Assembly: GCF_003018115.1 (NCBI RefSeq)
Contig: NZ_CP027457.1
Direction: 5' to 3' (one strand)
Length of the DNA stretch: 64,000 nucleotides
Source of the DNA: Escherichia coli
GTDB taxonomy: Bacteria > Pseudomonadota > Gammaproteobacteria > Enterobacterales > Enterobacteriaceae
Below are positions 22,163 through 22,420 of this stretch, piece by piece. Position numbers and translations under genes: made by a program. The notes below the pieces were generated by a model. It made no database searches. It saw nothing but the letters and a program-made list of their open reading frames with translations, and was not told the origin of the DNA. Positions within the stretch are counted from its first letter, which is position 1; each line of letters opens with the position of its first letter.

Positions 22163-22312
22163 TTACCTGGACGTGCAGGCCATGAGCGCAGCAACCTCCT
22201 TATCACCGTCCCGGAACCGCAGTTCGTAGAGCGTTTGTCGGGTCAGGAGTGTGAATGCCAGAATCGTAATGCAGATAATGAGCAGACACACCACCAGAGG
22301 GTTGCGCTTCAT
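22163..22312 (-). CDS. hokB: Hok-family type I toxin (membrane-depolarising peptide)
   Basis: Minus strand reads MKRNPLVVCLLIICITILAFTLLTRQTLYELRFRDGDKEVAALMACTSR (49 aa). Confidence 0.85.
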   Translation of the reverse strand: MKRNPLVVCLLIICITILAFTLLTRQTLYELRFRDGDKEVAALMACTSR

Positions 22313-22370
22313 AGCCTTTCTCCTTGCCGGATGGCGGGTAAGAGGCTAACATCTGAATTGCTTGGTTCAT
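22203..22370 (-). CDS. mokB: mok-type overlapping reading frame that couples hokB translation
   Basis: 55-codon frame MNQAIQMLASYPPSGKEKGY... overlapping hokB in the other frame, the usual hok/mok arrangement. Confidence 0.7.
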   Translation of the reverse strand: MNQAIQMLASYPPSGKEKGYEAQPSGGVSAHYLHYDSGIHTPDPTNALRTAVPGR

Positions 22371-22420
22371 TCGTTGGCCTCGGTTGATAGAAATATCGGT
22401 CGGGGCCTTCGTCTTTCTGA
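22355..22420 (+). ncRNA. sokB: Sok-type antisense RNA to the mokB translation-initiation region (coordinates approximate)
   Basis: Inferred from the hok/sok architecture, where the antitoxin RNA is antisense to the mok start; ends not verifiable from sequence alone. Confidence 0.3.

Follow-up and report, generated by a model that had tools for sequence, protein, structure and literature searches.

An apparently complete chromosomal hokB/mokB/sokB type I toxin–antitoxin module in Escherichia coli, with haplotype variation at its Sok-target loop

Does the Hok-like locus between ydcA and trg in the window (the whole 64,000-nt stretch of Escherichia coli DNA analysed here) hold every part of a hokB/mokB/sokB type I toxin–antitoxin module, and how does its allele compare with the one in K-12? 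Among type I toxins, HokB belongs to the few linked with the formation of persisters, and hokB offers the best bacterial example of protein recoding by A-to-I mRNA editing. We are highly confident that the region 22097–22470 is the chromosomal hokB/mokB/sokB module of E. coli with all of its parts intact, and, judged from sequence, the module is apparently complete and working, with its function putative. The locus is well studied and already known, and nothing in it is new in kind; the mildly new angle lies only in its haplotypes and its loop variation. The original prediction described a 49-aa Hok toxin, an overlapping mok frame and a presumed antisense Sok RNA at 22163–22420, and all three were found there (Table 1). 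That span takes in the core genes but not the opening 38 nt of the hokB leader (to 22458), the promoter, or the 3′ UTR of hokB (22162 to ~22097), which carries the fold-back element. The whole unit, from ~22097 to 22470, is thus wider than the reported span on both sides, and a by-product of the analysis is a full coordinate map of it, including the 3′ fold-back element outside that span.

Table 1 Coordinates of the hokB/mokB/sokB module and its neighbours in the window.
Feature	Position	Strand	Basis or remark
cybB	21107–21673	+	neighbour
RydC sRNA gene	21684–21747	-	Rfam RF00505, 92.5 bits; between cybB and ydcA
ydcA	21918–22091	+	neighbour
fbi element UCUCAUGGCACCC	22102–22114	-	complementary to tac; MFE, covariation
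yncP, 22-codon ORF	22117–22185	+	annotated in K-12 (b4774) and RefSeq
Conserved G+C-rich hairpin GCGCGGGGAUUUUCCCCGCGC	22136–22156	-	just after hokB stop, internal to 3′ UTR
hokB CDS, 49-aa Hok/Gef membrane toxin MKRNPLVVCLLIICITILAFTLLTRQTLYELRFRDGDKEVAALMACTSR	22163–22312	-	ORF, Pfam, NCBIfam, RefSeq
mokB, 55-codon overlapping leader frame	22203–22370	-	ORF; K-12 annotation b1420
Tyr29 codon UAC, context CUCUACGAA	22226–22228	-	TadA site transferred from K-12
Structured hokB leader	22307–22458	-	Rfam RF01794, 111.5 bits
Putative sokB promoter	22324–22352	+	read from sequence; fits K-12 SokB 5′ end
sokB antisense RNA gene, ~57 nt	22360–22416	+	mapped from K-12 b4429 (1492119..1492175, +)
tac element, hokB mRNA 5′ end GGGUGCCUGAGA	22447–22458	-	RF01794 position 1 aligns at 22458
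Putative hokB -10, TAGGAT	22465–22470	-	6 nt upstream of 22458
trg	22711–24351	+	neighbour

Positionally, the locus is the orthologue of K-12 hokB/mokB/sokB (b4428, b1420 and b4429), lying in the same place between ydcA/yncP and trg and in the same orientation, with hokB convergent with ydcA and divergent from trg. The order cybB-rydC-ydcA-yncP-hokB-trg is that of K-12, and the surroundings given in the original prediction (ydcA, rydC and trg) were borne out, with cybB placed as well. Against K-12 MG1655, 613 of 619 positions are identical (99%), with six substitutions and no gaps, and the two strains do not differ in the sequence of tac, fbi, ucb/dcb, SD or TadA site. The same chromosomal position is also filled by hokB in E. 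ruysiae, Escherichia sp. B1147 and E. marmotae. The locus matches far beyond chance, both to Rfam RF01794 (E=1e-25) and to other genomes, a 511-nt query finding matches in 5415 of 5426 complete E. coli genomes (nine identical among the matches listed). The small ORF yncP, which had no family match in the profile search, overlaps in antisense the stop codon and 3′ UTR of hokB, the conserved post-stop hairpin at 22136–22156 among them.

Functionally, the assignment of the toxin is supported by Pfam PF01848 HOK_GEF (E=1.5e-23, profile positions 2–42 of 42 covered) and by NCBIfam NF007279 ‘Hok family toxin’ (99.2 bits, cut-off 73), and RefSeq labels the gene hokB in identical DNA. In K-12, expression of the hokB coding sequence is toxic, and HokB is documented to form pores, to act in persistence and to be cleaved by RseP (PMC12214031, PMC10470546). 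The mokB frame has an SD, GAGG (22378–22381), 7 nt before its AUG (22368–22370) and ends inside hokB; it returned no family match in the profile search, as expected for a mok frame. Its frame, start and length are kept in six of seven Escherichia copies and in most plasmid homologues, and we class it as a mok frame with putative translation. At codon 29, the A at 22227 corresponds by coordinate transfer to the TadA A-to-I editing site (Y29C) of K-12 hokB, located at A1491986 of NC_000913.3 (PMC12214031). The sequence context of this site, with UACG in a predicted loop (local fold weak, z=-1.1), is intact in the window, which makes it a predicted editing site, and the plasmid and Serratia homologues have Cys where HokB here has Tyr29.

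Upstream of and overlapping the start of the toxin frame is a conserved structured leader, matching RF01794 over its full length (1–157) on the hok sense strand with a score that lies well above the gathering score of 59. The leader comprises tac, hairpin 1, the ucb/dcb hairpin (~22376–22407), the Sok-target hairpin (22342–22381, with its loop at 22358–22365) and the hokB SD, AAGGAG (22320–22325). Here and in eight homologous loci, this Rfam model, whose name is ‘sok antitoxin’, aligns with hok mRNA in the sense direction and stops at the AUG of hok. What it models is thus the hok leader rather than Sok, and automatic annotation with RF01794 would put ‘sok’ on the wrong strand. The putative hokB -10 is kept as TAGGAT, TATGAT or TATATT at the same distance in nine hokB-like loci; no good -35 was found for it, and a consensus promoter scan of 21900–22750 at a threshold of 9/12 missed this -10 and returned no sigma-70 site. 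Further upstream, a palindrome, CACGCAATTTCGTG, lies on the minus strand at 22503–22516, ~45–58 nt from the hokB mRNA start; apart from one or two changes it is largely kept across all Escherichia copies, the tandem ones among them, and may be a regulator site.

On the opposite strand, K-12 sokB maps gap-free onto the window, placing a short cis-antisense RNA gene with promoter and terminator over the mok start. The 57-nt RNA has a predicted fold of -22.2 kcal/mol (z=-4.5), in which a free, single-stranded 5′ tail of 16 nt is followed by a 14-bp terminator hairpin (22376–22407, plus strand) and then by the U-rich tail UUCGUCUUU, the DNA after the hairpin reading UUCGUCUUUC; the 5′ tail is complementary to the mokB AUG, to its SD and to the target loop. 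The putative promoter consists of a -35 TTGCCG (22324–22329), a 17-nt spacer and a -10 TAACAT (22347–22352), with +1 7 nt on at 22360, and it agrees with the consensus at 8 of 12 positions, which is below the threshold of the scan and explains why the scan missed it. Because both promoters are weak (at most 8/12), they were placed by position and conservation; the sokB -35 is the complement of GGCAAGGAG, a block that is invariant in the homologue alignment and holds the hokB SD. In K-12, the SokB start is an exact match in a genome-wide RNA 5′-end map (PMC2912661), the RNA has been detected and rises 3-fold in a pcnB mutant, i.e. without poly(A) polymerase (PMC5389530), and CRISPRi knock-down of sokB impairs growth, the more so as nutrients run short (bioRxiv 2020.03.04.975888). 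The antisense transcript across the mokB start, on which the original prediction stood or fell and whose promoter and terminator it proposed to look up in published small-RNA maps, is therefore present in K-12, with its 5′ end mapped there, and the terminator hairpin is found in the window. This transcript evidence is from K-12 only; for the window strain, whose sokB -10 differs by one base, we infer SokB by analogy.

A further point of the original prediction concerned fold-back inhibition elements at the 3′ end of the hokB mRNA, and such an element, fbi, is present there, backed by covariation. In the MFE fold of a 364-nt RNA, nt 1–12 are predicted to pair with fbi; in a 3′-truncated RNA, nt 1–8 are predicted to re-pair with GGCCCC (ucb), and the mokB SD and AUG then lie in a 40-nt target hairpin. 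Both this tac-ucb re-pairing after 3′ loss and the ucb/dcb pairing are predictions of thermodynamic folding, and in the ucb/dcb hairpin pairs have changed on both sides among homologues (columns 64–66 with 71–73). For tac-fbi, fbi did not stand out from background in an initial ungapped 9-mer complementarity score that allowed G-U, and this score was replaced by unguided alignment, RNAalifold and pair counting. The relatives gathered to test the pairing were tandem copies from E. ruysiae (two) and B1147 (three) together with Serratia, Pluralibacter and plasmid loci. From the unguided alignment of ten chromosomal loci, RNAalifold recovered the 5′-3′ helix, with CG:5/UA:4 and CG:7/UA:2 at two of its pairs. 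When pairs were counted, 92.7% of cells were paired versus 51–64% with a slid 3′ partner, three pairs showed changes at both partners, and none of 500 shuffles attained the observed score. All three copies of Escherichia sp. B1147 have GGGCGCC at the 5′ end and GGCGCCC at the 3′ end, which, set against GGGUGCC with GGCACCC in the window, amounts to a compensatory U-A to C-G change; the plasmid loci have GGCGCUU with AAGCGCC. Since the set is small and its ten sequences are related, we regard these data as supportive rather than conclusive for the putative tac-fbi pairing.

After fbi come a C and then UUUU (22097–22100), the likely 3′ end of the full-length mRNA, and the similarity between tandem copies stops at ~22096, just after CCCCUUUU, which likewise puts the hokB mRNA end ~6 nt from the ydcA stop. 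The hokB lineage has no terminator hairpin after fbi, unlike the plasmid homologues, and in K-12 Term-seq the predicted full-length end has no listed 3′ end nearby, so that this 3′ end is placed from conservation only. The G+C-rich hairpin just after the hokB stop has pairs that are invariant in ten homologues (alignment columns 353–371); it was considered as a terminator of hokB or of ydcA/yncP and rejected, as neither strand has a U-run after it.

On this basis, we propose that the weak promoter (-10 TAGGAT) would give a mok-hok mRNA of ~362 nt, from 22458 to ~22097 on the minus strand, in which tac would be locked to fbi and the mokB ribosome site (dcb) paired with ucb, so that the full-length mRNA would be neither translated nor bound by Sok. 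Slow 3′ trimming would remove fbi, the 5′ end would re-pair with ucb, and the mokB SD and AUG would fold into a hairpin with an accessible loop. SokB, which would be short, unstable and constitutive, would pair through its 5′ tail with this loop and the mokB start, blocking the translation of mokB and hence the coupled translation of hokB, and the duplex would be degraded. Upon a drop in SokB or a rise in hokB, as through the induction by Obg/(p)ppGpp reported in K-12 (PMC12214031; bioRxiv 2020.03.04.975888), HokB would insert into the inner membrane and form pores that collapse the membrane potential, leading to dormancy or persistence, or to death at high dose; TadA editing of codon 29 (Tyr to Cys) could raise the toxicity. 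Of the elements on which this scheme draws, the ORFs and their families, the K-12 orthology, the putative tac-fbi and ucb-dcb pairings with their covariation, and the predicted Sok hairpin with its complementarity are read from the DNA itself; 3′ processing, translational coupling and RNase III decay we infer by analogy with plasmid R1, whose hok/sok system is the paradigm for mRNA activation by 3′ exonucleases, for RNase III cleavage of the Sok duplex and for a short-lived Sok (PMC5668327). Two K-12 Term-seq ends inside the duplex region, at 1492156 (-) and 1492144 (+), are compatible with the scheme.

Comparatively, R1-type plasmid hok/mok/sok loci have the same three-gene architecture and the same leader family RF01794, share with the window the invariant blocks AGCCUCUUAC and GGCAAGGAG and the G+C hairpin after the stop, and likewise show a putative 5′-3′ tac-fbi pairing with covarying sequence. 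The window locus differs from them in the length of its products (49 versus 52 aa for the toxin, 55 versus 70 codons for mok), in having Tyr29 where plasmid Hok proteins have Cys, in a shorter first leader hairpin and in having no separate terminator hairpin 3′ of fbi. Unlike the plasmid loci it is chromosomal, so post-segregational killing would not be its selected role. Other E. coli type I pairs under two-layer RNA control, namely tisB/istR-1, dinQ/agrB, zorO/orzO as well as shoB/ohsC, also combine a small hydrophobic inner-membrane toxin with a processed, inert mRNA and an antisense block (PMC5668327); they differ in belonging to unrelated toxin families with unrelated RNA structures, in being activated by 5′ processing instead of 3′ trimming, and in having no mok-type coupling frame.

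The homologues behind these comparisons came from several searches: tblastn against plasmids with the 49-aa toxin as query gave nothing but mislabelled chromosomes, and the plasmid homologues were taken from the ‘distant’ blastn search, while a word-indexed protein search returned almost only HokB of Escherichia and Shigella, with a few proteins from Pluralibacter, Serratia and Enterobacter. Between trg and ydcA, hokB is duplicated in tandem in E. ruysiae (L017:1355–2236) and triplicated in Escherichia sp. B1147 (L018:861–2237), in units of ~495 bp whose leaders, the Sok-target loop apart, are nearly identical between copies. In E. marmotae (L019:1354–1879), hokB occupies the same position without an equivalent of 22430–22600, i.e. 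of the promoter and the first 29 leader nt; that copy has also lost 3 nt close to the hok start and reads UAU for UAC at codon 29, with loss of the TadA motif. The closest relatives outside Escherichia, in Serratia (L009:1–2650 and L020:1–1707), adjoin a P2-type phage replication gene, Phage_GPA, and in them mok starts at an AUG that shares the reading frame of hok, hence an annotated ‘HokB’ of 68 aa. On an Enterobacter IncFII plasmid (L015:641–788), the usual 3′ UTR, fbi element included, gives way to a group II intron (RF02012, 104 bits) that begins 17 nt beyond the hok stop.

Among the complete E. coli genomes, 4489 of 5426 (83%) have at least 80% of the query as a single unbroken match, and in ~17% the locus is interrupted or deleted. 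One ST131 genome has an IS150 insertion at 22383–22385 with a GTT duplication, in the SokB hairpin and the hokB leader (L003:3334–4782), which splits both sokB and hokB; from the counts, ~400 complete genomes may carry an IS150-type interruption. Other losses include a deletion from hokB into trg and replacement by ISEc60. The module is thus common but dispensable.

Relative to K-12, the allele in the window has the HokB changes H3R (22305) and T19A (22258), one substitution in the 3′ UTR (22133), one upstream (22599) and two in the leader. At mRNA nt 109, G in the window versus C in K-12 also gives MokB I7M and a sokB -10 of TAACAT versus TAAGAT; at nt 96, A versus U also changes SokB nt 4. 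The G at nt 109 restores a C-G pair in the target hairpin, with a predicted -12.3 kcal/mol versus -9.0 in K-12, and it is common to all outgroup copies, so the K-12 state is the derived one at this site. With A at nt 96, the loop reads CCAAGCAA in the window, which has no U and holds no YUNR U-turn, an accessory, kinetic feature; the K-12 loop, CCUAGCAA, carries the YUNR CUAG. In R1, the YUNR is important for rapid Sok binding (PMC6562991); it is found in three of seven aligned Escherichia copies, and the decayed E. marmotae copy is also without it. Counted with haplotype-specific 42-mers, the leader type of the window occurs in 959 complete genomes (18%) and that of K-12 in 3912, with recombinant types in 8 and 13. 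Whether the linked changes at 22350 and 22363 form a compensatory pair was also considered; this was rejected because A/G versus U/C show no complementarity and the two positions are not opposite one another in the hairpin. Linkage across 13 nt suffices to explain their association.

Two other accounts of the locus have to be set against the module proposed here. That the orthologue is functionally silent in the window strain, a decaying remnant as has been proposed for K-12 hok loci, strikes us as very improbable. The proposal goes back to 1999, when, as PMC7232551 relays from Pedersen and Gerdes 1999, the five K-12 hok loci were called non-functional on account of IS elements, point mutations or rearrangement, and the losses in ~17% of genomes, the E. 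marmotae copy without promoter and tac, and the window loop without YUNR would all fit such decay. Yet the ORFs, both SDs, tac-fbi, ucb-dcb, and the Sok hairpin and promoter are all intact in the window, and most genomes (83%) keep the locus whole; in K-12, moreover, hokB is toxic when expressed and knock-down of sokB lowers fitness, and the G at nt 109, shared by all outgroups, means that the window allele is not the derived one there.

A different possibility, which we hold to be improbable, is that control is exerted mainly by a premature 3′ end or cleavage in the leader together with transcriptional induction, with fbi-tac a structural relic. It draws on K-12 Term-seq, in which a very strong minus-strand 3′ end lies at 1492156 (eLife 62438 supplement 1), corresponding to window 22397 or leader nt 62, and none lies at the predicted mRNA end; with the dominant end at nt 62, most transcripts may never reach hokB. 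The reported induction of hokB by Obg/(p)ppGpp and the missing terminal terminator hairpin downstream of fbi in the hokB lineage point the same way. The compensatory substitutions of tac and fbi within Escherichia argue, on the other hand, for ongoing selection on the pairing, and the end at nt 62 lies inside the SokB-complementary region, where it could equally well be a product of Sok-directed cleavage (PMC5668327). The same Term-seq data place a weaker plus-strand 3′ end inside sokB at 1492144 (eLife 62438 supplement 1), i.e. at window 22385, within the SokB hairpin at SokB nt 26. Both ends thus sit in the Sok-hok duplex, a point undiscussed in the text of that paper, and may be duplex-cleavage products; that they stem from one RNase III cut was rejected, since they are 12 nt apart and not staggered by 2.

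In the module itself, the variation of the leader is greatest at one place. Of the 14 leader columns that vary among seven Escherichia copies, 4 lie within nt 94–98, every tandem copy has a loop of its own, and no other part of the leader, nearly invariant elsewhere, varies as much as the target loop; E. coli itself is split into two strongly linked leader haplotypes. We tentatively raise the idea, itself unlikely on present evidence, that the Sok-target loop (nt 94–99, 22360–22365) is a determinant of specificity and kinetics under diversifying selection. If this is true, such that the rate of SokB-hokB association or the level of SokB differs, the haplotypes would set different HokB persistence thresholds. 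K-12, in which nearly all hokB work has been done, carries a derived leader haplotype, and both its Sok-target hairpin and its sokB promoter differ from those in the window.
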